A stretch of 64,000 nt of DNA from Bacteroidota bacterium (GTDB taxonomy: Bacteria > Bacteroidota > Ignavibacteria > Kapaibacteriales > UBA2268): contig JBDQHL010000001.1 in NCBI GenBank assembly GCA_040264895.1, positions 79,060 through 143,059 on the forward strand, in the 5' to 3' direction. The first letter of the stretch is position 1; the number at the start of each line of letters is the position of its first letter. The notes below the pieces were generated by a model. It saw nothing but the letters and a program-made list of their open reading frames with translations, ran no database searches and was not told the DNA's origin. Both the position numbers and the translations under genes were made by a program. Shown piece by piece: positions 580 through 61,187 of this stretch.

Positions 580-1017
580 TTGCATAATCTAATTCTTAAT
601 GAATTTTTGAGATTAAGACCTGTAGATGCAATACAATATACTGCTTCTTCATGCGAAGGATTAGAAACTATATTAATTAGAGAAAAAACTTCATTACAAA
701 GTCATAAGTTAAGAAAAATAAATGTAGATGATTTATTGACTAATATTGAAACTGGTTATAATAATACAGAAAATTATTTATATCCTAACCCAACAACAGA
801 AGATATAAATATACAACTCAACAACAAATACGCATCCGAATTTCATTATGAGTTAATCTCAACTGCTGATCTAGTAGTTCAATCAAATCCATTAGGTATT
901 ATTAATCCAAGTGGACAAAGCAGAATTGACATTTCAAATCTTGCAAATGGGCATTACTCGTTGAGGATTTACAGCGAGAGAGAAGAATTCATATTCAGCA
1001 TTATAAAAGAGGTGTAG
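580..1017 (+). CDS. T9SS C-terminal sorting domain segment, same frame as 1-537 (probably the severed C-terminus of that gene)
   Basis: Ends YLYPNPTTEDINIQL...GHYSLRIYSEREEFIFSIIKEV, a type-A Por CTD pattern. It has no ATG start or signal peptide of its own. Frame 1 is continuous from 1 to 1017 apart from one TAG. Confidence 0.5.
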   Translation: MHNLILNEFLRLRPVDAIQYTASSCEGLETILIREKTSLQSHKLRKINVDDLLTNIETGYNNTENYLYPNPTTEDINIQLNNKYASEFHYELISTADLVVQSNPLGIINPSGQSRIDISNLANGHYSLRIYSEREEFIFSIIKEV

Positions 1018-1192
1018 GTTTCCTACTTGCTAATTCATTCATTTTGATTAATTTACAGCCTAGATAATTATATTAAAAATCTAATTCGGCACACTAAACG
1101 TACAATATATAAACAAAACAATCATCCATTAATTAAACAATCCCATTATTTGTGACAAAAGTCATATAAAACTGTTAATAACTTAAGTAGCT

Positions 1193-1762
1193 ATGAGCAA
1201 AGATCTATTAGACATATCTGACGCTGAGCTTTATTATATGCTTTCTGGTACAAAATCAGAATCAAAAAAGGCATTCGATGAGCTCTACAGGCGTTATTCA
1301 CCCAATATCTATACCTATTGCAGGAAGGTATTGAATAATGCCCCTATGGCTGAAGATATATTTCAAGAGACCTTTATGCGCTTCTACACTAGTGCCAAAA
1401 AAGACAGAAAAATGACTAATGTTGCTGGTTATCTCACCAAGATAGCAAGGAACTTATGTCTGAACGAAAAGGCAAAAAAGTACAACGACAAGGTATCTTT
1501 GGAAGATTTGGAACTGCCACACTATGATAAATCATACGGTAATAGACAGCTGAACGAACTGCTCCAAACCGCACTCGATGCCCTACCAAAAAAGTACAGA
1601 GAAGTAATTGTGTTGCGTGAGTATATGGATATGTCTTACAAAGAGATAGCCGAAGCACTAGACACGAAAATGCCCATAGTTAGAATAAGAATATATAGAG
1701 CTAAAGGTAAAATCAAAGAACTTTTAGCACCTTACTTTGATGAAATAAAAGACTATAGTTAA
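1193..1762 (+). CDS. ECF (sigma-70 family, group 4) RNA polymerase sigma factor
   Basis: Region 2 reads DIFQETFMRFY and region 4 HTH reads MSYKEIAEALDTKMPIVRIRIYRAKGKIKE. At 189 aa the size is typical. Confidence 0.9.
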   Translation: MSKDLLDISDAELYYMLSGTKSESKKAFDELYRRYSPNIYTYCRKVLNNAPMAEDIFQETFMRFYTSAKKDRKMTNVAGYLTKIARNLCLNEKAKKYNDKVSLEDLELPHYDKSYGNRQLNELLQTALDALPKKYREVIVLREYMDMSYKEIAEALDTKMPIVRIRIYRAKGKIKELLAPYFDEIKDYS

Positions 1763-3060
1763 TGGAAATGAAAGATTATAATATGACTGATTCTGAAAAA
1801 TTAGCAATGTTGCTAGACGGAGAAACCGAAGGGCTAGACACTACAGAAGTGCTCAATTCCTTGGCGGAAAGTCCCGAGCTGCAAAAGGAATTTCTGGACA
1901 CCATGCGGATGCGCCGTATGATGAGTGGCCAGTTAGAAACTCCACCAAACAGACTCCGCAGGGGCGTACTTGCTGGTATCGGCTTAGGTGGCAGTGGATT
2001 GTGGTATCACTTGCAAAACACAGGTTTCGCAGCAGCATCGGCACTTATCGGTTCTAAGGTTGGTGTAGCTATTGCAGCTACTACTATCGCAGTAGTATCT
2101 AATCTATTCCTTGTCGATATGGACAATAACGAGGAACCAACTACAGTAAGTAACAGTACAAACAAACAATTTGCAGCTTTGGCTAGCGCTGAGCCAGTAG
2201 AAATGTCTGTACCATTTGTTAGTAGTAAAAGCGTTGTAGAGGAAGACGTAGCAGCTAAGGGTAGCAACAACTCTTTCATTAGCAGTTCAAACTCTTCTGA
2301 GGGTAGTTATATTGCAAATAATGATATTGAAACAGACGTAGCGGGTAACAATAATGCAAAAACTAGTAATAATAGTTTATTAATTTCCGAAAGCTCAATT
2401 GCTAACAGCAATGACACAGAAAGCTATTTATTAGTTTCTGACAAGTCAGATTATAATATTGACAGTTATAACAATAGAGAGTTCAATACAAGCTATGACA
2501 ATGGTACAAATAGTGGGTTCATAGTAAATCCATCTAAAAGAATGCAATATGATTATAGTTCAGACAGAGCACTGCTATTCAACTTACAAGCAAAAGGAGT
2601 ATCAAATTCATCACTGACCGATGCTAACATGTCAGTTGTCGAGTCACCGACTATCAATAATATTGGTATAGCACTTATGTATTCTGTAAATGAAGATTTT
2701 GAATTAGGTTTAGAGTTTGGGCAAGAGTTCTTTGTTAACAAAGTGAGAGTAAGCACATTTGAAACTGATGAGACGATGCTAGAAAATCAATTAACTTTTT
2801 GGGGTGGTCTGAAAGCAAACTATACCTTCAGTGAGCTTAGTATATTAACTCAAAACCTAAAGCCAATGACGTCATTATTAATTGGGGGTACTAACCGTGG
2901 CTGGGTAACAAAAGCTTCAGCTGGGTTGGTGTACGATGTATCTAACAAAATATCGATGTTCGCAGGTCCAGAATGGACTACGGGACTTTATAACTTTAAT
3001 TCAAGCCTACTGTCAACTCATAAGTTTGGAATTATATATGGTATGTCCATTAGGTTCTAA
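1762..3060 (+). CDS. putative anti-sigma factor with N/S-rich linker and C-terminal OMP-like beta-barrel domain
   Basis: TAATG overlap with the sigma gene. The N-terminus has LAMLLDGETEGL...PELQKEF, typical of anti-sigma domains, followed by one TM (VGVAIAATTIAVVSNLFLV). The C-terminal 160 aa show alternating hydrophobic strands and a terminal Phe (GMSIRF). Confidence 0.6.
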   Translation: MEMKDYNMTDSEKLAMLLDGETEGLDTTEVLNSLAESPELQKEFLDTMRMRRMMSGQLETPPNRLRRGVLAGIGLGGSGLWYHLQNTGFAAASALIGSKVGVAIAATTIAVVSNLFLVDMDNNEEPTTVSNSTNKQFAALASAEPVEMSVPFVSSKSVVEEDVAAKGSNNSFISSSNSSEGSYIANNDIETDVAGNNNAKTSNNSLLISESSIANSNDTESYLLVSDKSDYNIDSYNNREFNTSYDNGTNSGFIVNPSKRMQYDYSSDRALLFNLQAKGVSNSSLTDANMSVVESPTINNIGIALMYSVNEDFELGLEFGQEFFVNKVRVSTFETDETMLENQLTFWGGLKANYTFSELSILTQNLKPMTSLLIGGTNRGWVTKASAGLVYDVSNKISMFAGPEWTTGLYNFNSSLLSTHKFGIIYGMSIRF

Positions 3061-3431: not shown

Positions 3432-4514
3432 TTATACCTTTACTTCAATATTTTTTACCACTGCTTCATAAAGCATATCAGCACTCACAAGATCAATACA
3501 AGAATAGTCATCATTCGTACACTTTGCACTGAAAAAGCAATGACACTGTTTAGTTGGCTCTACAATTTCACCACGTCCATATAGTTCAAACTCTTCAGCG
3601 TTAAAAATATTGTTAACCAATATTAACGGTTTTCTGAGTCCTATAGCTAAGTGTGCACCCATAGTAACTGCACTTACCACCAAATCGCATTCACTGATGA
3701 GCGAAATAAATTTATTCAAACTAAAGTGACCCAAATAAGCTGCCTTAGTAGTCGCTGCTAGATATTCATTTTTGTAATGCTCTTGCGAACCACCTAATAG
3801 CAATGGGTAATAACCATTTTCCTTTAGCTTATTTATCAATTCTATCCAAGTTGAATCAGGAATCAAACGGCTAGTCCACCTGTCGCCACAACCAGTATTA
3901 AGACCTACAATTTTTCTGCCTTGGTTAGCCAAATCCCAATCTTGCTTCAAGTAATCTATAATGTAAGGCTCTTTGTTAAATTTCCATCCGCATATTTCAA
4001 ATATTTCTTCTGGATAGGACTTAGTATTTGCCTTGTTTACATTATCAAAAAGCCCAGTCAAATACTTTTGCTCAGCTCTTTCGTTAGCAGGAACTGGTTT
4101 ACCATCACGCATAGTAAATCCATCTAACTTTTTTGTAGTTAGTGATTTTGTGAGTCCACAAGCTTCGTAATCTTTGTCTAAGTTAATTACATAGTCAAAC
4201 TCTGTATTTTGCATAGTAAGTATTGACTTTGCATCGAATTTGAAAACTCTATCTACTTTATCGGGCACAACTGAGGGGAAATCGGTAATCCACCAAATTT
4301 CAGAGTCACTATATTCTTCCCATACTTTTTTCAAAATGGGAGTGGTTCTTATTACATCACCAATAGCACCGAGTTTTATAATTAGTACTTTACCTTTCTT
4401 CGGTTCATAATAACTACAGTCCTCGCACATAACTCCATGTATTTTGTGAGGTCCACATGGAATATGACCTAAAAAGTATTTACAATCTAAATTGTATTTA
4501 ATCTTTTCTGACAT
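3432..4514 (-). CDS. glycosyltransferase family 9 (heptosyltransferase-like) with N-terminal Cys-rich segment
   Basis: KVLIIKLGAIGDVIRTTPIL, GLNTGCGDRW, LLLGG and CDLVVSAVTMGAHLAIGLRKPLILV are GT9 hallmarks. Confidence 0.85.
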   Translation of the reverse strand: MSEKIKYNLDCKYFLGHIPCGPHKIHGVMCEDCSYYEPKKGKVLIIKLGAIGDVIRTTPILKKVWEEYSDSEIWWITDFPSVVPDKVDRVFKFDAKSILTMQNTEFDYVINLDKDYEACGLTKSLTTKKLDGFTMRDGKPVPANERAEQKYLTGLFDNVNKANTKSYPEEIFEICGWKFNKEPYIIDYLKQDWDLANQGRKIVGLNTGCGDRWTSRLIPDSTWIELINKLKENGYYPLLLGGSQEHYKNEYLAATTKAAYLGHFSLNKFISLISECDLVVSAVTMGAHLAIGLRKPLILVNNIFNAEEFELYGRGEIVEPTKQCHCFFSAKCTNDDYSCIDLVSADMLYEAVVKNIEVKV

Positions 4515-4519
4515 ATATG

Positions 4520-5308
4520 CTAATATCTGTATTGAATCATTATTGAAAAGTAAAAATTATAGGTAAGCTCTTCTTCCTGTTCTATTCCTAAAGCAGAATT
4601 GAAACTTTCAGGTCCGAATGGTGTCAGAAGATTCCCACGACTATCGTCAGCACCCAATAGGTTAAGGGCATCGACTCCCCAACTAACATTGATCATATAA
4701 TTTTCGTAAAGTTCACCTTCTAAACCAAGTTTCAACAATCCACCAAATCTACCCACAGACTGTTTATCTCCAAACTCTCTTTCTTCTATCTCTCCGGTAG
4801 AAAATATCTCTTCTTGTCGAATCAAACTAATAGCATGAATATAATTATATCTTGCTTCTACACCCACATAAACTGAAGACATAGCTGAAGGAAATCTGAT
4901 AAGTGTATAGTTAATACCAACTAGTGGAGATAGAATATTCAAATTATTCATTAATCTGAAAGTACTAATATCTCTTGGTATTCTCTCTCTAGCACTATAA
5001 AAATTGTAATTAATACCACCTACTAATCTCCAATCACCAACATCATCTAGTTTGTATTGACCTTTAACTTCAATACCTGGCATAGCTCCATTAAAACTAC
5101 CACCCGGAGGGTTTGCAGCATTGATTGGACTAATAGTATTAATAGCAGGGTTGTTGCCTAGTACTTTTGTAGTTGTAAATCCTATACCTAAACTATACTC
5201 ATAGTTATAGACATTGGTGTTACTAAAACTATATTGGCTCATCATTACAAATGATACCAAGCCAACAATTATTAAATTATAAAGTTTCTTTAATTTGATA
5301 TTCTTCAT
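4520..5308 (-). CDS. small outer-membrane beta-barrel protein (PorT/SprT-sized)
   Basis: Signal-like N-terminus (MKNIKLKKLYNLIIVGLVSFVMMSQYSFS), alternating beta-strand pattern and an aromatic C-terminus (IQYRY). The start is chosen at the second Met to reduce overlap with the GT2 gene. Confidence 0.6.
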   Translation of the reverse strand: MKNIKLKKLYNLIIVGLVSFVMMSQYSFSNTNVYNYEYSLGIGFTTTKVLGNNPAINTISPINAANPPGGSFNGAMPGIEVKGQYKLDDVGDWRLVGGINYNFYSARERIPRDISTFRLMNNLNILSPLVGINYTLIRFPSAMSSVYVGVEARYNYIHAISLIRQEEIFSTGEIEEREFGDKQSVGRFGGLLKLGLEGELYENYMINVSWGVDALNLLGADDSRGNLLTPFGPESFNSALGIEQEEELTYNFYFSIMIQYRY

Positions 5309-6419
5309 CTCTTTTAAAATTTTTGACAATCATTTCGCCCAGTAGTCCCAATGAGACTAACTGAACACCAACTATTATTAATCCAATACCAAGAAGTGCT
5401 GCTGGTCTGTTACTCAAGAAAGTATCTCCCATCAACCATTCTATTGTTAGCCAAGCGTCTATCCCAAATCCTAACAATCCTAATAAAGTACCTAGTGTAC
5501 CAAAAAAGTGTAGTGGTCTTTTAAGATAACGTGATGTAAACAATAATGTTAATAAATCAAGGAATCCTTTTACATATCTAGAAGCGCCAAATTTGGTAAC
5601 TCCATGTTTTCTATGGTGATGCAAAACAGGTATTTCAGCTATTCTAAAACCATTCCAGTGGGCTAGTACAGGTAAATACCTATGCATTTCGCCATATATA
5701 TCGAGTGACTTTGCAGTTTCAGACCTATAAGCCTTTAGTCCACAATTAAAATCATGTAGCTTTAACCCGCTAGTTTTTGATGTAACGAAGTTAAAGAATT
5801 TAGAAGGTAACGTTTTATTAATTGGGTCATTTCTTTTCTTCTTCCAACCAGAAACCAAATCATAACCTTCTCTAATTTTGGACATTAAGTTAGGTATCTC
5901 ATCTGGATCATCTTGAAGGTCAGCATCCATTGTAATTATAACTGCACCTTTCGCACGCTTGAAACCAACTGACAAAGCAGCTGATTTACCATAATTTCTT
6001 CTAAATCTTATTAGCTTAAACCGTCTATTCTTTTTATTAATCTCTTTGATTACCGAATAAGTGTTATCGTCGGAACCATCATCTATATATATTACTTCGT
6101 AGTTTCCTTTTGCTTCTCTCTTTAGGACGTGTTCCAATCTATTTGAAAGCTCTTCGAGTGAGTCTTGCTCATTGAAAGTTGGAATCACAACTGATATCAG
6201 AGGTCTTTTAGAGTTGTTAGAATAATTCTTTTTCCTCTTGATGCCCTGCTTATTATCTTTACCTTCAGAATTATCTTTTGGCTTATGAGACTTCTTAACA
6301 GGGTTTATTCTGCTATCTCTTTTCTTATAATTCTTAGGTTTATGAGCATCTGTACTCCTTTGCCTTTCTGGCTTAGAGCTCTCTGAATTTTCTATTTGCT
6401 TTTTATCTTTATCAGGCAT
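5277..6419 (-). CDS. glycosyltransferase family 2, polyprenyl-phosphate glycosyltransferase-like (ArnC/GtrB type) with about 70-aa basic N-terminal extension
   Basis: VVIPTFNEQDSL, DDGSDDNT and DADLQDDP motifs plus two C-terminal TM helices. The N-terminus is K/R/S/N-rich low complexity. Confidence 0.85.
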   Translation of the reverse strand: MPDKDKKQIENSESSKPERQRSTDAHKPKNYKKRDSRINPVKKSHKPKDNSEGKDNKQGIKRKKNYSNNSKRPLISVVIPTFNEQDSLEELSNRLEHVLKREAKGNYEVIYIDDGSDDNTYSVIKEINKKNRRFKLIRFRRNYGKSAALSVGFKRAKGAVIITMDADLQDDPDEIPNLMSKIREGYDLVSGWKKKRNDPINKTLPSKFFNFVTSKTSGLKLHDFNCGLKAYRSETAKSLDIYGEMHRYLPVLAHWNGFRIAEIPVLHHHRKHGVTKFGASRYVKGFLDLLTLLFTSRYLKRPLHFFGTLGTLLGLLGFGIDAWLTIEWLMGDTFLSNRPAALLGIGLIIVGVQLVSLGLLGEMIVKNFKRDEEYQIKETL

Positions 6420-7332: not shown

Positions 7333-10300
7333 TTATTTAACGATTTGTAATCTCATAATCTTGTTGTAAGAACCAGCTTGAACTTTAACAAAGTAGTTAC
7401 CAGAAGAGAAGCCGTTAGCATCAAAGCTAATAGTCTTAACATCTTCGTTTACGTTTCCACTGTAAAGATTAGCTACTTTGTTACCAACTGAGTTGATTAA
7501 AGTAACATTGTAAGCACCTTCTACAGGAGCATTGAAACTAATAGTAGCTTCAGATACAACTGGGTTAGGGTAAACATTGTTTACTTCACTTAATTCTTCA
7601 GTTTCTACTCTATTCAATTGAATTGAGTTAGAAGAAGACTTAATTTCAACTGAAGAGAAATTATCAGAACTGATAGTACCAAAGTACTCGTAAGTAGCTG
7701 CGTCTTTCACTTCAAAAGTACCATTCATTCCTTTAGCAGATATAGAAACTGGATACTCAACGTTAGTCAATTTGATAATTGATTCGTTGTTGTTAGTCAT
7801 CTCAGTATTACCGTCAAACCTTACGTCAAAAGATGGTGGTAGTGGTGGTAATTCAATGCTGTTAATTTCTGTGTTGTTAGTTACATATAATGCTTTAGAA
7901 CTTTGGTTATTGTCAGAAACAATAATTTGAGTTGCATTGTTTTTAACACTATTTCTAGAGTCAAACATTACTGGAACTTCGTTAGTTCTCTTAGCACTTT
8001 CTGTATTAAAGTAGTAGTAACCATCAGTATCAACTTTCAACCAGTAACCTAATCCAGGTTGTAATTCAGATACTTCTTTGTAACCTTCTTTAGTTTCATA
8101 TTTCCAGACACCATGTTGTAGCATGTAGTTTCTGTCAGGTCTGTTACCTTGACCAACTGATCTAAACTCTAATGCTTCAACATTGATAGGAGTTGTAGGA
8201 GCACCAACTGTGTTCCAACCACCTCTTCCTTCGTCAGCAACATAAACTCTTACTGGGTTAACCAATGGGCTAACTTCAAAGATGCTAGTTCCTCTGAATG
8301 TAGTAGGTAAGTTATCTTTATTCGCACCGAATTTTACGAAATAACCAACACCTGGACGAATGTTTCCGTCATCTTCTTGTTGATATGAATTTAAGAAGAA
8401 GTAATAAGGTCTTCTAGTTAGTAGACCTGTTGACTCCCAAGGATTACCATTATCAATTGGTTTTACAGGCATAGATAGTAAATTCCATCCTGGCTCTATA
8501 ATTGGGTTACCCTCAAAATCAGTGTATTCGATTAATTTAGCAGGAGTATATTCTATATAGAATTCTCTTACTCTAGGGTCATTTATATTGAATGTATATA
8601 CATTAGGATCAATACTTGGAGTACCTTCATTCCACAAATCAACTGGATCAAAAGTTTGACCATTGTCTGTATCTCTTAAGAATATTGAAGAACCTTCAAT
8701 AAAGTCTTCTCTGTTCCATGAAATGATAATAGGATATCTTTGATCTTGATTATCTTCACCTGGATTAAATTTAACTTTATAAATTAATGAACGCGTCGTA
8801 TCATCAGAACTTCTAATATCTCTAGAATTTGATTTCAATTGCTCATCACTAGTAGCAAAGTCACCAAGACCAAATTGGATATCAGGATCATCAATTTCTT
8901 CTCCAGATTCATCTACAGGATAGAATCTAGCTTCCATTTCAGTAGAAGAAAGAGCAGATTCTTTAGCGTGCTCACCATATAGTGAATCTACACCAATTGT
9001 AGCTCTGTCACCAGTACCAAATACTATTCTTGAAGACTCTCCATCTCTATTTGTTAATGTCAATGGAATACCATTCAATCTTGAACCAGCTGGATCTTGA
9101 CCTTCTAATGGTGGTCTGAAGTAAATAAATGTTACTTTAATTCTTACTGGAGAAATGATAGCATAATCAGAACTGAATGTTAGATAACCAGTATAAATAC
9201 CAGTTTTCTCAATTTCAGGATCATCATTCAAATCATCACCAGCTTGGATTTTTGCAGGATCACAAGTTATTGTTAAACTTAATGGACCTTCGTCATCTGG
9301 AACTTCATTCTGTTCATCTCTTTGACTGTCTTCACCTAATAAACCATTATCTAAATAAGTTACAAAGCCTTCTGTTGTAGGACCTTGTATATCACGGCCA
9401 TCAAATTCTAACCATGGTTTATCAGATACGATATGGATGTTTTTAAGTAAAGTTAATTCTGTACCATTCAAAACTTCCATAATTCGTGTTGCCACATTTG
9501 GATAAGGGTTTTGATTTCTATTCGCATTCAAATCAACAGTAAAAGGATCTACTATTTCATATAAACCTTCCTCTATTTCTACAATTGGAGGTTGTTGACC
9601 TAATTGTCTGTTAATCTCAAATTCAAAAGATGGTTGATCTGTCATATATTGGAACCAAATACCACCTGGTAAAATTTTGTTCTCAACGATATCATTTTGG
9701 ATAGTTCTATTGTCCATACCAGCAAGACCAGAGAAAGTTACACCAAGTGGTGAATCATAATTAGGTCTTTGTGGATCTGGGAAATCTTCACTAACTCGTG
9801 TATCATAATCTCTGTAGTCAACAAAAGGAGCTTCTTGTAATACATTCAAGTCATTGTAAATAATAGTGTCTCTACCAATATGGAAGAAAGAAAAACTATT
9901 TTCTAACTTCTCGCCTTCATTCAATACAGCTTTAAATCTTACATAAAGTAAAACTCTAAACTGTTGGAAGTCCAACGCTGTATTTGGCAATGGTTTGTTA
10001 CTTGCAGCAGATATTGATACTGCACGGCCTCTATTAACAGTTACCGTTTGAGATGCATCAATATGAGTATAGAAGTTTTTATCTACTTCATCATGCCAGT
10101 CAATTTGGAAGCCAGCAGCCAATGGTTGCTCTCCTCTTAATTTAACAGAACGAGGAATGTATTTAGGATGTACAGTTTCTACACCAATTGGTCTTACTGT
10201 TGCTGAATCATAGAACAATTTAAAGTTGAAACTAGTGATAGGAGCAACAGGTAAATCAACAGAATATCCATCTGGATTATCTGCCCATCTGTTATCAATA

Positions 10301-10533
10301 AAGACAGGAACTAAAAATTCTCTGTCAAAATTCGTGTTTCTAGGTAGCAATACTCTACCATTTTCGAACCACTGGTCGTTATATCCACCTTCTTGTCCAG
10401 TTAAAGATAAAACTGGGATTCGAGGATAATCTTGAGCTTCTACAGAACCGAACCCAATAAGGAATAGCAATGCTGCTACTGCCATACTGGTAAGTCTGTT
10501 TACGCCCTTTACCTTAGTATTTTTATTATACAT
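7333..10533 (-). CDS. large T9SS-sorted surface protein with N-terminal cohesin-like module
   Basis: Signal peptide and a cohesin-like segment (FLVPVFIDN...SFNFKLFYDSATVRPIGVE). CTD reads VYPNPVVSEATISF...GNYFVKVQAGSYNKIMRLQIVK. Confidence 0.8.
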   Translation of the reverse strand: MYNKNTKVKGVNRLTSMAVAALLFLIGFGSVEAQDYPRIPVLSLTGQEGGYNDQWFENGRVLLPRNTNFDREFLVPVFIDNRWADNPDGYSVDLPVAPITSFNFKLFYDSATVRPIGVETVHPKYIPRSVKLRGEQPLAAGFQIDWHDEVDKNFYTHIDASQTVTVNRGRAVSISAASNKPLPNTALDFQQFRVLLYVRFKAVLNEGEKLENSFSFFHIGRDTIIYNDLNVLQEAPFVDYRDYDTRVSEDFPDPQRPNYDSPLGVTFSGLAGMDNRTIQNDIVENKILPGGIWFQYMTDQPSFEFEINRQLGQQPPIVEIEEGLYEIVDPFTVDLNANRNQNPYPNVATRIMEVLNGTELTLLKNIHIVSDKPWLEFDGRDIQGPTTEGFVTYLDNGLLGEDSQRDEQNEVPDDEGPLSLTITCDPAKIQAGDDLNDDPEIEKTGIYTGYLTFSSDYAIISPVRIKVTFIYFRPPLEGQDPAGSRLNGIPLTLTNRDGESSRIVFGTGDRATIGVDSLYGEHAKESALSSTEMEARFYPVDESGEEIDDPDIQFGLGDFATSDEQLKSNSRDIRSSDDTTRSLIYKVKFNPGEDNQDQRYPIIISWNREDFIEGSSIFLRDTDNGQTFDPVDLWNEGTPSIDPNVYTFNINDPRVREFYIEYTPAKLIEYTDFEGNPIIEPGWNLLSMPVKPIDNGNPWESTGLLTRRPYYFFLNSYQQEDDGNIRPGVGYFVKFGANKDNLPTTFRGTSIFEVSPLVNPVRVYVADEGRGGWNTVGAPTTPINVEALEFRSVGQGNRPDRNYMLQHGVWKYETKEGYKEVSELQPGLGYWLKVDTDGYYYFNTESAKRTNEVPVMFDSRNSVKNNATQIIVSDNNQSSKALYVTNNTEINSIELPPLPPSFDVRFDGNTEMTNNNESIIKLTNVEYPVSISAKGMNGTFEVKDAATYEYFGTISSDNFSSVEIKSSSNSIQLNRVETEELSEVNNVYPNPVVSEATISFNAPVEGAYNVTLINSVGNKVANLYSGNVNEDVKTISFDANGFSSGNYFVKVQAGSYNKIMRLQIVK

Positions 10534-60744: not shown

Positions 60745-60854
60745 ACTTGAAGTTTGGTTCTGTGCTTACAATTAGACATTTCGAATTGCAAAGATAGCAA
60801 AGTGAAGTCAAAATTTTGAATTTTTAGAATAATAGTATAGATTTGAATTACTGA

Positions 60855-61012
60855 TTAGTCATTAGTTATTGGGAATCCTGTGAAAATCAGGAACGGTTCC
60901 GCCGCTGTAACGAGATACGACCGAACTATGTAATTAATTGCAGTCACTGTGCTTTAGGCGCGGGAAGGCAGTTCGGAAGGTTTGAAGCTTGAAGTCAGAA
61001 CACCTACTAAAT
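60855..61012 (+). promoter_or_regulatory. cobalamin (B12) riboswitch aptamer
   Basis: GGGAATCCTGTGAAAATCAGGAACGGTTCCGCCGCTGTAA core, GCGGGAAGGC, and a B12-box-like GAAGTCAGAACACCTAC in canonical order on the + strand, with P1 pairing TTAGT/ACTAA. Confidence 0.85.
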
Positions 61013-61187
61013 TATACTCATTGGATAAATTCTTAAATTAGAGAATTGAACATCTGCGGAATACAGATGCTTTGAGGTAAAAAGCACCCCCTAACGTAGC
61101 GATTGGCTACCCCTGACTCAAGTGCCTTGCCTCTTAATACAGAAAGAAATAGATTTAATATTTAATAATTAACAAGGTACAATTCTT

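Follow-up and report, generated by a model that had tools for sequence, protein, structure and literature searches.

A predicted single-polypeptide trans-envelope anti-sigma factor encoded with an ECF sigma factor in deep-branching Bacteroidota

Organization of the Sigma/Anti-sigma Locus

We analyzed a stretch of DNA of 64,000 nucleotides (64 kb, referred to as the window), in which an ECF sigma factor gene is directly followed by a gene encoding a putative anti-sigma factor of 432 aa. The following features were assigned, all of them on the forward strand:

1151..1177 (+), candidate promoter of the ECF type for autoregulation, TGTGAC-N16-TGTTA (TGTGACAAAAGTCATATAAAACTGTTA), with its 3' end 16 nt from the sigma factor ATG
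1193..1762 (+), ECF sigma factor gene, 189 aa
1762..3060 (+), gene of the 432-aa anti-sigma factor, sharing 1 nt (TAATG) with the sigma factor gene
1783..1938 (+), predicted anti-sigma domain in the cytoplasm, aa 8-59, three helices resembling RseA_N, motif SEKLxxLLDGE...PELQKEF
2056..2115 (+), predicted single inner-membrane helix, aa 99-118, N-in/C-out, from hydropathy and an AlphaFold2 helix at 99-117
2116..2562 (+), predicted periplasmic disordered tether, aa 119-267, Ser/Asn-rich, about 150 aa, from pLDDT, composition and indels
2209..2226 (+), short conserved tether motif VPFVSS, aa 150-155
2563..3057 (+), predicted 8-stranded outer-membrane beta-barrel domain, aa 268-432, from AlphaFold2, Foldseek and amphipathic strands
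3028..3057 (+), C-terminal strand with the beta-signal-like sequence GIIYGMSIRF, aa 423-432, from the family consensus

All parts of the pair that had been proposed in a preliminary description of this DNA were present where it had placed them. This includes the overlap of one nucleotide between the two genes, where the final A of the sigma factor stop codon TAA (1760-1762) is also the first base of the anti-sigma ATG at position 1762. The genes surrounding the pair encode T9SS cargo, glycosyltransferases and other proteins. No TonB-dependent receptor was found among the neighboring genes and no FecR domain was found in the window protein by Pfam, which agrees with the earlier suggestion that the pair departs from the FecR/TonB arrangement. 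The organisms carrying this family are uncultured MAGs.

The sigma factor was matched by Pfam Sigma70_r2 (E = 4e-14) and Sigma70_r4_2 (E = 5e-15), and scored 95 bits against the NCBIfam model sigma70-ECF, for which the cut-off is 42.9. The nearest specific NCBIfam models, TIGR02985 Sig70_bacteroi1 and NF058625 PG0214/GFO_1088, gave 92-112 bits, which is below their cut-offs of 126-130, and the cut-off was reached for none of the Bacteroidia ECF models in NCBIfam. Sigma factor identity was found to be 78-93% within the close subfamily and 41-54% at distant loci.

The association between the two genes was found to extend beyond the window. An ECF sigma factor of 187-191 aa is encoded directly 5' of the anti-sigma gene in all nine distinct loci examined (the window and eight others), with a spacing that ranges from a 4-nt overlap to a 21-nt gap, and this coupling was kept down to an anti-sigma identity of 20%.

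A generic scan for sigma-70 promoters and terminators was uninformative. The motif TGTRAC-N16-TGTTA, on the other hand, has a single match in the 64-kb window, compared to 0.10 expected by chance, and was found in exactly one copy in 16 of 17 related loci, including the distant loci L015 and L017. The motif is located 40-60 nt upstream of the sigma factor start in every locus that carries it, while locus L016 has a variant differing by one base. From this we infer that TGTGAC-N16-TGTTA is the promoter of the operon itself. No second copy was found in the window, even when two mismatches were allowed, and the motif search found no regulon member within the 64 kb. The motif is sharply defined, which makes it usable for regulon prediction.

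Extent and Conservation of the Family

Thirty-three close homologues of the 432-aa reading frame were found, and an exhaustive HMMER search gave 1186 cluster representatives (50% identity clusters) at E ≤ 1e-3. Because of these numbers the reading frame is, on the evidence of sequence conservation, a conserved gene far beyond chance. Among the best 150 of the 1186 representatives, nearly all have a length of 380-500 aa and match from end to end; the few shortened entries (e.g., P0034 and P0110) are probably fragments. A genome scan with the close-family alignment matched nine close MAGs, and three proteins were returned when the barrel profile was used for a word-indexed search. No Bacteroides proteins were found among the matches listed, including those from the search with a diverse full-length profile. 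An artefact of gene fusion or of assembly was considered as the origin of the reading frame and was rejected, as many assemblies independent of each other contain the architecture at full length.

The Predicted Anti-sigma Domain and Inner-Membrane Helix

The N-terminus had been described as that of an anti-sigma factor, and this was supported by profile comparison. The N-terminal profile of the family matched the RseA N-domain from the sigmaE complex in PDB (1OR7 chain C, E = 5.1e-5), and also the anti-sigma factor DdvA (8RLZ, E = 0.18). When members of the family were scanned individually, Pfam RseA_N was found in 16 of 24 (best E = 3.3e-5) and zf-HC2 in 10 of 24. The window protein itself scored 12.7-17 bits for RseA_N, under the Pfam cut-off of 24, its N-terminal fragment alone gave E = 0.009, and no RseA_C was found in it by Pfam. 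AlphaFold2 predicted helices at residues 10-18, 27-36 and 38-55 with a pLDDT of 65-70. The lack of an anti-sigma fold, which would have spoken against the preliminary description, was not observed; the N-domain was found to resemble RseA. Judged from these matches the N-domain is related to RseA, but the 432-aa protein is no RseA orthologue.

The single inner-membrane helix of the preliminary description was recovered as the sole strongly hydrophobic segment of the protein, a 19-residue stretch at aa 100-118 with a Kyte-Doolittle value of 2.18 (family median 2.05). The flanks of the helix are charged in the positive-inside manner, with family-wide net values of +2.35 for the preceding 35 aa and -0.95 for the following 15 aa. 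The Gly-rich stretch aa 67-90 was rejected as a second transmembrane helix, since its hydropathy is about 0-0.4 and it is unconserved across the wide family.

The Predicted Periplasmic Tether

The segment following the helix had been taken to be a disordered linker rich in Asn and Ser, and several observations agree with this. The AlphaFold2 pLDDT of this 147-aa tether is about 30, Ser makes up 20% and Asn 15% of aa 119-268, and the segment is highly variable, with numerous indels among the aligned family members. The length of the tether in 184 family members ranges from 101 to 228 aa, with a median of 137.5 and an interquartile range of 126-147.

Within the variable tether the short motif VPFVSS was found conserved, with P151 and S155 being invariant across the close subfamily. 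The general form P-phi-phi-[STNKE]-[ST] is present in 73 of the 184 tethers, compared to a mean of 9.7 and a maximum of 18 in shuffled tethers, and is located a median of 34 aa past the transmembrane helix. VPFVSS is possibly a site for a protease or for recognition of a partner.

The Predicted C-Terminal Barrel

The C-terminal part had been proposed to form an outer-membrane barrel of 8-10 strands. Using a diverse alignment of the barrel domain, AlphaFold2 predicted eight strands (aa 273-284, 301-308, 313-331, 336-355, 366-377, 380-392, 397-412, and 415-431) with a pLDDT of 92.6 and a pTM of 0.85. The six amphipathic segments listed in the preliminary description are located in six of these eight strands. 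Hydrophobic and polar residues alternate in every strand throughout the family, leaving one face strongly hydrophobic, and the charged residues E318, E322, E404, and K421 are invariant. Every Foldseek match in PDB at E ≤ 1e-3 was an outer-membrane barrel, and no soluble barrel was among them. The best match was the OmpA transmembrane domain (TMq 0.62/TMt 0.60), followed by NspA (0.57), OmpW (0.54) and the N-domain of OprF (0.53); Ail was also matched. The predicted closure of the barrel, by pairing of strand 1 with strand 8, rests on the pTM and on the TM-scores to OmpA. Of the four connections predicted to be extracellular, three have a length of only 2-4 residues, and since they are so short it is doubtful that the barrel senses an external ligand.

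The outer-membrane beta-signal recognized by BAM has the pattern polar-x-G-x-x-hydrophobic-x-aromatic. The C-terminal consensus of the 184 members is G-phi-[TSQN]-Y-G-phi-[SA]-phi-[KRN]-F, which we take to fit this pattern. The last residue is Phe in 143 members, Leu in 24 and Tyr in 9, and in 157 of the 184 the protein ends exactly where the barrel profile ends. The window protein ends with ...YGMSIRF, and thus has the terminal Phe that had been pointed out earlier.

Sequence comparison identified the barrel less readily than fold comparison did. When the complete 432-aa protein and its C-terminal 163 aa were scanned with Pfam and NCBIfam, only the faint RseA_N match was returned, and the barrel profile had no meaningful match to PDB sequences, so that the barrel is recognized by fold comparison only. 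Two Pfam models had been put forward in the preliminary description for a check of the barrel. OMP_b-brl (PF13505) was found, as weak matches below threshold in 7 of 23 members (best E = 0.014), together with sub-threshold matches to OprF (E = 0.0033) and Porin_4. OMP_b-brl_2 (PF13568), in contrast, was absent at E ≤ 1 to 5 from the window protein, from ten distant relatives and from the 23 barrel domains.

The window protein reaches the threshold of no Pfam or NCBIfam model for an outer-membrane protein, its barrel profile matches no PDB sequence and AlphaFold2 is by itself silent on the compartment of the barrel. This would be in agreement with the C-terminal domain being a soluble periplasmic beta-domain, either the beta-sandwich named earlier as a counter-hypothesis or a lipocalin-like barrel, that acts as the ordinary sensor of a single-membrane anti-sigma factor. 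However, the Foldseek matches at E ≤ 1e-3 are all integral outer-membrane barrels, one face of each strand is strongly hydrophobic family-wide, and the conserved terminal Phe and beta-signal-like motif are found in a protein that stops at its last strand. The Pfam matches below threshold are likewise to outer-membrane families, and a periplasmic sensor has no need for a disordered spacer with a minimum of 101 aa. A soluble C-terminal domain is thereby largely refuted in silico, and we consider it extremely improbable.

Compared to the small outer-membrane barrels (N-domains of OmpA and OprF, NspA, OmpW, and OmpX/Ail), the window barrel is similar in fold (query-normalized TM 0.53-0.62), in its amphipathic strands and in its C-terminal aromatic residue. 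It differs by being the C-terminal domain of a protein predicted to be anchored in the inner membrane, whereas theirs follows a cleaved signal peptide. Also, the sequence similarity is below threshold (best E = 0.003-0.014), and in the window barrel all but one of the four predicted extracellular connections have an unusually short length.

Altogether, the predicted architecture of N-domain, transmembrane helix, tether, and barrel supports the suggestion made in the preliminary description, that a single polypeptide reaches from the cytoplasm to a barrel in the outer membrane and acts as a trans-envelope anti-sigma factor.

[quoted passage not shown]

The dual-membrane design was published for gut Bacteroides between 2022 and 2024, and the window pair is a divergent new example of it and no new principle. 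A trans-envelope anti-sigma factor consisting of one polypeptide was predicted in 2022 for M0N98_03760 of P. vulgatus (PMC9308784), and the design was demonstrated by fractionation for Dma1 of B. thetaiotaomicron in 2024 (PMC10927553). The sigma factor Das1 was pulled down by residues 1-40 of Dma1, and full-length Dma1 was present in total membranes, while OMVs contained C-terminal fragments only (PMC10927553). The toxins BcpT and Bd-A induced ecfO-reo more than any other gene pair (PMC13114119), and BamA is bound and inhibited by Bacteroidetocin A (PMC9308784).

The likeness to Dma1, Dma2 and Dma3 of B. thetaiotaomicron (WP_008766767.1 and relatives) is drawn from architecture. The same four modules are found in the same order (sigma-binding N-domain, one transmembrane helix, long disordered tether, and 8-stranded barrel), the anti-sigma gene is located directly downstream of an ECF sigma factor gene, and the host lineage belongs to Bacteroidota in the current NCBI taxonomy. 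With 432 aa, compared to about 55 kDa for Dma1, the window protein is the smaller of the two, and its host is Kapaibacteria/Ignavibacteria-like and not a member of Bacteroidia. The cognate sigma factor of Dma belongs to ECF group 21. The window sigma factor scores below the cut-off of every Bacteroidia ECF model in NCBIfam. The Dma1 barrel is annotated as PF13568, whereas the window protein and 33 relatives have no match to this model; PF13568 is the annotation of the founding member Dma1 and no stated definition of the Dma family. Since this match is lacking, homology to the Dma proteins studied is unproven, and the mechanism would be carried over by analogy.

We consider it likely that the sigma and anti-sigma factors of the pair form a dual membrane-spanning switch of the Dma/Reo type. 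The computations gave the four-part architecture and its conservation, the coupling of the genes and the promoter motif; physical binding of the sigma factor, localization to both membranes, the kind of signal and release by proteolysis are what we infer. In such a switch the 432-aa protein, having no cleavable signal peptide, would keep its RseA-like N-domain in the cytoplasm, where it would sequester the co-translated ECF sigma factor. The helix at aa 99-118 would anchor the protein in the inner membrane with the remainder outside, the tether of about 150 aa would span the periplasm, and the last 165 aa would form an OmpA-like 8-stranded barrel, with the terminal ...YGMSIRF strand as an insertion signal of the type recognized by BAM. 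The sigma factor would be kept inactive for as long as the barrel remains correctly assembled. When the outer membrane or the assembly of the barrel is disturbed, the periplasmic part would probably be cut by proteases, and removal of the leftover membrane stub, as for RseA, would free the sigma factor. The freed sigma factor would then transcribe its own operon from TGTGAC-N16-TGTTA, along with a further regulon.

The tether might alternatively be cleaved constitutively. The N-terminal part would then be a conventional inner-membrane anti-sigma factor and the barrel an independent small outer-membrane protein (e.g., structural or an anchor for a partner), with no signaling through the tether. 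Dma1 does give rise to C-terminal fragments of about 20 and 17 kDa, which are its sole forms in OMVs (PMC10927553), the positionally conserved tether motif is a possible processing site, and the barrel is conserved far more than the tether. On the other hand, full-length Dma1 was detected in membranes (PMC10927553), and the fusion of the modules is kept in nearly all of the best 150 representatives and in 184 members that have the two domains along with a tether no shorter than 101 aa, which would be needless if the parts acted separately. We find constitutive cleavage distinctly unlikely.

The constrained length of the tether is what would be expected of a ruler or tension sensor, which would report the distance between the membranes or blebbing of the outer membrane (vesiculation) instead of damage to the outer membrane or to barrel assembly. 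Dma1 and Dma2 of Bacteroides do control the production of outer-membrane vesicles (PMC10927553, PMC13088901). Vesiculation is, however, an output of the Bacteroides system and no demonstrated input, and the strongest known inducers are envelope-damaging toxins, a BamA binder among them (PMC13114119, PMC9308784). A ruler function is therefore, in our view, very unlikely.

The family comprises at least 1186 clusters at 50% identity that are invisible to Pfam and NCBIfam. It could be a separate, old and large family, not orthologous to Dma1/Reo, in which an RseA-type anti-sigma domain became joined to a different small outer-membrane barrel and the anti-sigma factor measures its own BAM-dependent insertion. 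An uninserted barrel, or an exposed ...Y-G-x-x-x-x-F end, would in that case lead to cleavage at VPFVSS and release of the sigma factor. This reading appears rather doubtful to us.

Under the Dma/Reo-type reading, the design that has so far been studied only in gut Bacteroidales would be widespread in deep-branching environmental Bacteroidota (Kapaibacteria/Ignavibacteria-like MAGs), within a family missed by current domain databases. This large unannotated family is the new element here, and a modest one. The Dma authors themselves raise the question whether BAM inserts Dma proteins. The family adds comparative constraints beyond the Bacteroides proteins, i.e., a tether that is at minimum about 100 aa long and carries a conserved motif at a set distance from the inner membrane, the four invariant charged residues of the barrel, a clear beta-signal, and the promoter motif. 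These bear on how one protein is inserted into two membranes and transmits a signal between them.

Comparison to RseA and FecR Systems

Like RseA of the E. coli sigmaE system, the window protein has an RseA_N-like N-domain with no zinc motif, and is a predicted N-in anti-sigma factor that passes the membrane once and whose gene directly follows that of the ECF sigma factor. It probably also shares a response to stress in the outer membrane or in outer-membrane protein assembly, with proteolytic release. It differs in having no RseA_C/RseB-binding periplasmic domain. Whereas the RseA system senses the C-termini of other, unassembled outer-membrane proteins via DegS, the window protein carries a predicted outer-membrane barrel and an outer-membrane-type C-terminus of its own.

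In systems of the FecR/FecI/FecA type, which are common in Bacteroidota as SusC/TonB-linked ECF systems, an ECF sigma factor is likewise governed by a signal derived from the outer membrane. These systems, however, consist of three proteins, i.e., a TonB-dependent transducer in the outer membrane, the FecR anti-sigma factor in the inner membrane, and the sigma factor.

A plasmid collection was also searched with the anti-sigma factor and gave no match. ECF sigma factors on Bacteroidota plasmids were observed to have either a FecR/TonB neighbor or no anti-sigma neighbor, and the one on a Parabacteroides plasmid was found in the FecR/TonB layout.

Gene Pair, Putative Promoter Motif and Family

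The signalling genes and the motif in front of them are located on the forward strand of the window.

Promoter-like motif and gene pair
1151-1177 (+): TGTRAC-N16-TGTTA, ECF-type promoter-like motif upstream of the sigma gene
1193-1762 (+): ECF sigma ORF, 189 aa
1762-3060 (+): anti-sigma ORF, 432 aa

All features named in the preliminary description were recovered at the positions it gives. As given there, the two ORFs meet in TAATG, where the sigma stop codon TAA (1760-1762) and the ATG at 1762 have one base in common. The 189-aa ORF matched Pfam Sigma70_r2 (E = 4e-14) and Sigma70_r4_2 (E = 5e-15) and scored 95 bits with NCBIfam sigma70-ECF (cut-off 42.9); judged by sequence, its product is an ECF sigma factor. 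Co-occurrence of the two genes, proposed as a check, was found wherever we looked: in the window, in five loci (four close homologues) and in three loci with a 20-28% identical anti-sigma, an ECF sigma gene (187-191 aa) lay directly 5' of the anti-sigma gene, the two overlapping by up to 4 nt or standing up to 21 nt apart.

The motif TGT(G/A)AC-N16-TGTTA, which lies outside the 1193-3060 stretch of the preliminary description, had one match in the 64-kb window compared to 0.10 expected by chance; there was no further copy in the window, and it was absent before the cluster genes 3432-4514, 4520-5329 and 5277-6419. It was found exactly once in 16 of the 17 fetched related loci, always 40-60 nt 5' of the sigma start, and the remaining locus, L016, had a one-base variant. 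We infer that it is an autoregulated ECF promoter, and it could be used for regulon prediction in complete MAGs.

The initial search found 33 full-length anti-sigma homologues (415-443 aa, 41-100% identity) in metagenomes and in MAGs labelled Chlorobiota, Ignavibacteriae or Candidatus Kapaibacterium; Kapaibacterium belongs to phylum Bacteroidota, class Eximiradiia, in the current NCBI taxonomy. Their alignment had a conserved N-terminal zone of ~118 aa, a variable middle region rich in indels, and a highly conserved C-terminal zone of ~180 aa whose last residue is always Phe. Used as the query of an exhaustive HMMER search, the alignment retrieved 1186 cluster representatives at E ≤ 1e-3, 587 of them at E ≤ 1e-10, and the best 150 were nearly all 380-500 aa long and matched the profile end to end. 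The close subfamily was present in nine MAGs in a scan of GTDB-species genomes. By this conservation the anti-sigma ORF is a real conserved gene.

N-Terminal Domain and Membrane Helix

The anti-sigma N-terminus is hydrophilic and acidic, and no signal peptide was found in the 432-aa protein. The whole window protein gave only a faint RseA_N match in Pfam (E = 0.19). A profile built from residues 1 to ~70 in 24 diverse members was more sensitive: its best match, at E = 5.1e-5, was 1OR7 chain C, the N-domain of E. coli RseA crystallised in complex with the sigmaE that it binds, in agreement with the classic anti-sigma N-terminus described previously; the second-best match was the anti-sigma DdvA (E = 0.18). 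Scanned individually, 16 of the 24 members matched Pfam RseA_N (best 3.3e-5) and 10 matched zf-HC2. AlphaFold2 placed three helices within aa 10-55 (pLDDT 65-70). Together with the absence of a His/Cys zinc motif from the N-domain, the RseA matches identify it as a non-zinc, RseA-like anti-sigma domain.

The single inner-membrane helix noted earlier corresponds to aa 100-118, the sole strongly hydrophobic window of the protein (Kyte-Doolittle 2.18). Family-wide, the net charge is +2.35 in the 35 residues preceding it and -0.95 in the 15 residues behind it, and one transmembrane segment with this charge asymmetry points to an N-in/C-out topology. A Gly-rich juxtamembrane segment (GIGLGGSGLWYxLQN, window 1960-2031, aa 67-90) hardly varies within the close subfamily. 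A second transmembrane helix at aa 67-90 was ruled out, as hydrophobicity was too low and conservation of the segment is lost across the wide family.

Predicted C-Terminal Barrel

Polar and nonpolar residues are mixed in the last ~165 aa, and Phe is the final residue. With the initial shallow alignment AlphaFold2 predicted eight strands (pLDDT 65-84), and all 33 Foldseek matches of this model in the PDB at E ≤ 1e-3 were outer-membrane barrels. When aa 268-432 were refolded alone with a diverse 23-sequence alignment, the suggested AlphaFold check gave eight long antiparallel strands at pLDDT 92.6 and pTM 0.85, and 19 of 19 fold matches at E ≤ 1e-3 were outer-membrane barrels, with no soluble barrel among them.

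Fold matches to the aa 268-432 model (TMq and TMt, TM-score normalised to query and target)
OmpA transmembrane domain: TMq 0.62, TMt 0.60
NspA: TMq 0.57, TMt 0.60
OprF N-barrel: TMq 0.53, TMt 0.63
OmpW: TMq 0.54, TMt 0.49

Hydrophobic and polar faces alternate in all strands throughout the family, as expected from the amphipathic, Phe-ended C-terminus of the preliminary description. The C-terminal consensus is G-phi-[TSQN]-Y-G-phi-[SA]-phi-[KRN]-F, with Phe as the last residue in 143 of 184 members and Leu or Tyr in 33, and in 157 of the 184 protein and barrel profile stop at exactly the same position. The consensus fits what we take to be the BAM beta-signal pattern, polar-x-G-x-x-hydrophobic-x-aromatic. 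That the C-terminal domain is a soluble sensor is essentially refuted by the confident eight-strand model and its exclusive matches to the outer-membrane-barrel fold; the amphipathic strands, the consensus and the coinciding ends of protein and barrel also speak against it.

At the level of sequence the barrel is an outlier. It had no match among PDB sequences, and that of the window protein had none in Pfam, while the barrels of relatives had sub-threshold matches only, to OMP_b-brl (7 of 23, best E = 0.014), OprF (0.0033) and Porin_4. Of the four connections predicted to be extracellular, three have just 2-4 residues. The charged residues E318, E322, E404 and K421 are invariant or nearly so in the wide family and plausibly face the lumen.

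Tether

The linker of about 150 aa behind the helix is N/S-rich and disordered as first described, with 20% Ser and 15% Asn, and aa 120-270 had an AlphaFold2 pLDDT of ~30. In the 184 members with both end domains, 101-228 aa (median 137.5, interquartile range 126-147) separate the end of the transmembrane segment from the start of the barrel. Fully extended, 101 residues measure ~36 nm, more than the usual periplasmic width. That the tether itself acts as a distance or tension sensor we consider improbable.

Tether motif
2209-2226 (+): VPFVSS, aa 150-155, window form of P-phi-phi-[STNKE]-[ST]

The general motif was found in 73 of 184 tethers compared to a mean of 9.7 (maximum 18) in shuffled tethers, a 7-fold enrichment across the family, and its spacing from the membrane helix is fixed at ~34 aa. 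VPFVSS may serve as a site for cleavage or docking.

Relation to Known Systems and Proposed Mechanism

The structural conclusion of the preliminary description, one polypeptide from cytoplasm to outer membrane, was right; the concept was already published. For the P. vulgatus anti-sigma M0N98_03760, a 2022 study predicted a periplasm-spanning protein with an outer-membrane barrel at its C-terminus and linked it to envelope stress (PMC9308784). B. thetaiotaomicron Dma1 (BT_4721), encoded next to the ECF21 sigma Das1, was described in 2024 with the same four modules as the window anti-sigma (PMC10927553), and later work gave an explicit four-module definition of the Dma type. The Dma family is reported to be Bacteroidota-restricted (PMC10927553).

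Five architectural and contextual Dma-type features are present in the window pair, which we therefore class as a Dma-type system on the grounds of its architecture and its probable mechanism; the likeness to Dma1 is one of architecture, not demonstrated homology. As to ECF21, the group of Das1, the specific NCBIfam models nearest to the sigma factor, TIGR02985 and NF058625, stayed below their cut-offs (92-112 bits against 126-130). PF13568, the annotation of Dma1, was not reproduced for the window protein or for 33 relatives, and the window anti-sigma may be either a Dma1 orthologue or an independent fusion. Since the concept was published earlier, the pair represents a new, divergent example and not a new principle. 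The added value is comparative: the family is large and unannotated, comes from environmental Bacteroidota of deep-branching lineages, and supplies a lower bound on tether length, a motif conserved within the tether, a defined promoter motif and a clear beta-signal.

Residues 1-40 of Dma1 pull down Das1, and total membranes contain full-length Dma1 while OMVs contain C-terminal fragments only (PMC10927553). Constitutive cleavage of the anti-sigma into two independent proteins is in our view unlikely, if somewhat less so than a sensing tether. We favour, as the probable mechanism, sigma release upon sensing of damage or failed assembly. The N-domain would bind the co-translated sigma factor, as suggested by RseA similarity and the Dma1 data, and the helix, judged by its sequence, would be an uncleaved signal anchor. 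The tether would cross the periplasm, consistent with its conserved length, and BAM would insert the barrel via the beta-signal. If the outer membrane is damaged or barrel assembly fails, proteases would gain access to the periplasmic part and cut it, possibly in or close to the conserved tether motif, and RseP-type cleavage would then free the sigma factor to switch on its own promoter. These last steps are modelled on RseA and on the induction of Reo, the anti-sigma paired with EcfO, by envelope toxins: ecfO-reo was the gene pair most induced by BcpT and Bd-A (PMC13114119). Bacteroidetocin A binds and inhibits BamA (PMC9308784).

Genomic Context

The remaining neighbour genes vary from locus to locus around the pair.

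Neighbour genes in the window
580-1017 (+): Por_Secre_tail (T9SS C-terminal sorting domain) protein
3432-4514 (-): GT9 heptosyltransferase-like gene
4520-5329 (-): 269-aa ORF with a signal-like N-terminus and the end ...YRY, no Pfam match
5277-6419 (-): GT2 glycosyltransferase
7333-10533 (-): Por_Secre_tail (T9SS C-terminal sorting domain) protein

The T9SS sorting domains are consistent with a Bacteroidota-type (FCB) host and agree with the placement of Kapaibacterium in Bacteroidota. The genes at 3432-6419 (-) form an envelope-related cluster convergent with the anti-sigma gene, in which the 269-aa ORF possibly encodes an outer-membrane protein. Directly 3' of the anti-sigma gene, the homologous loci L001 (6662-7928), L003 (5293-6553) and L005 (4748-5983) have a minus-strand gene pair (129-133 aa and 202-204 aa, no Pfam match) that is not found in the window. 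In the distant loci L015 (4267-4842) and L016 (4261-4992), a gene of 191 or 243 aa without Pfam match follows closely in the same direction and may belong to the operon as a third gene in these lineages. The window also contains a cobalamin riboswitch at 60826-61025 (+) (Rfam RF00174, 73 bits, E = 4.5e-16).
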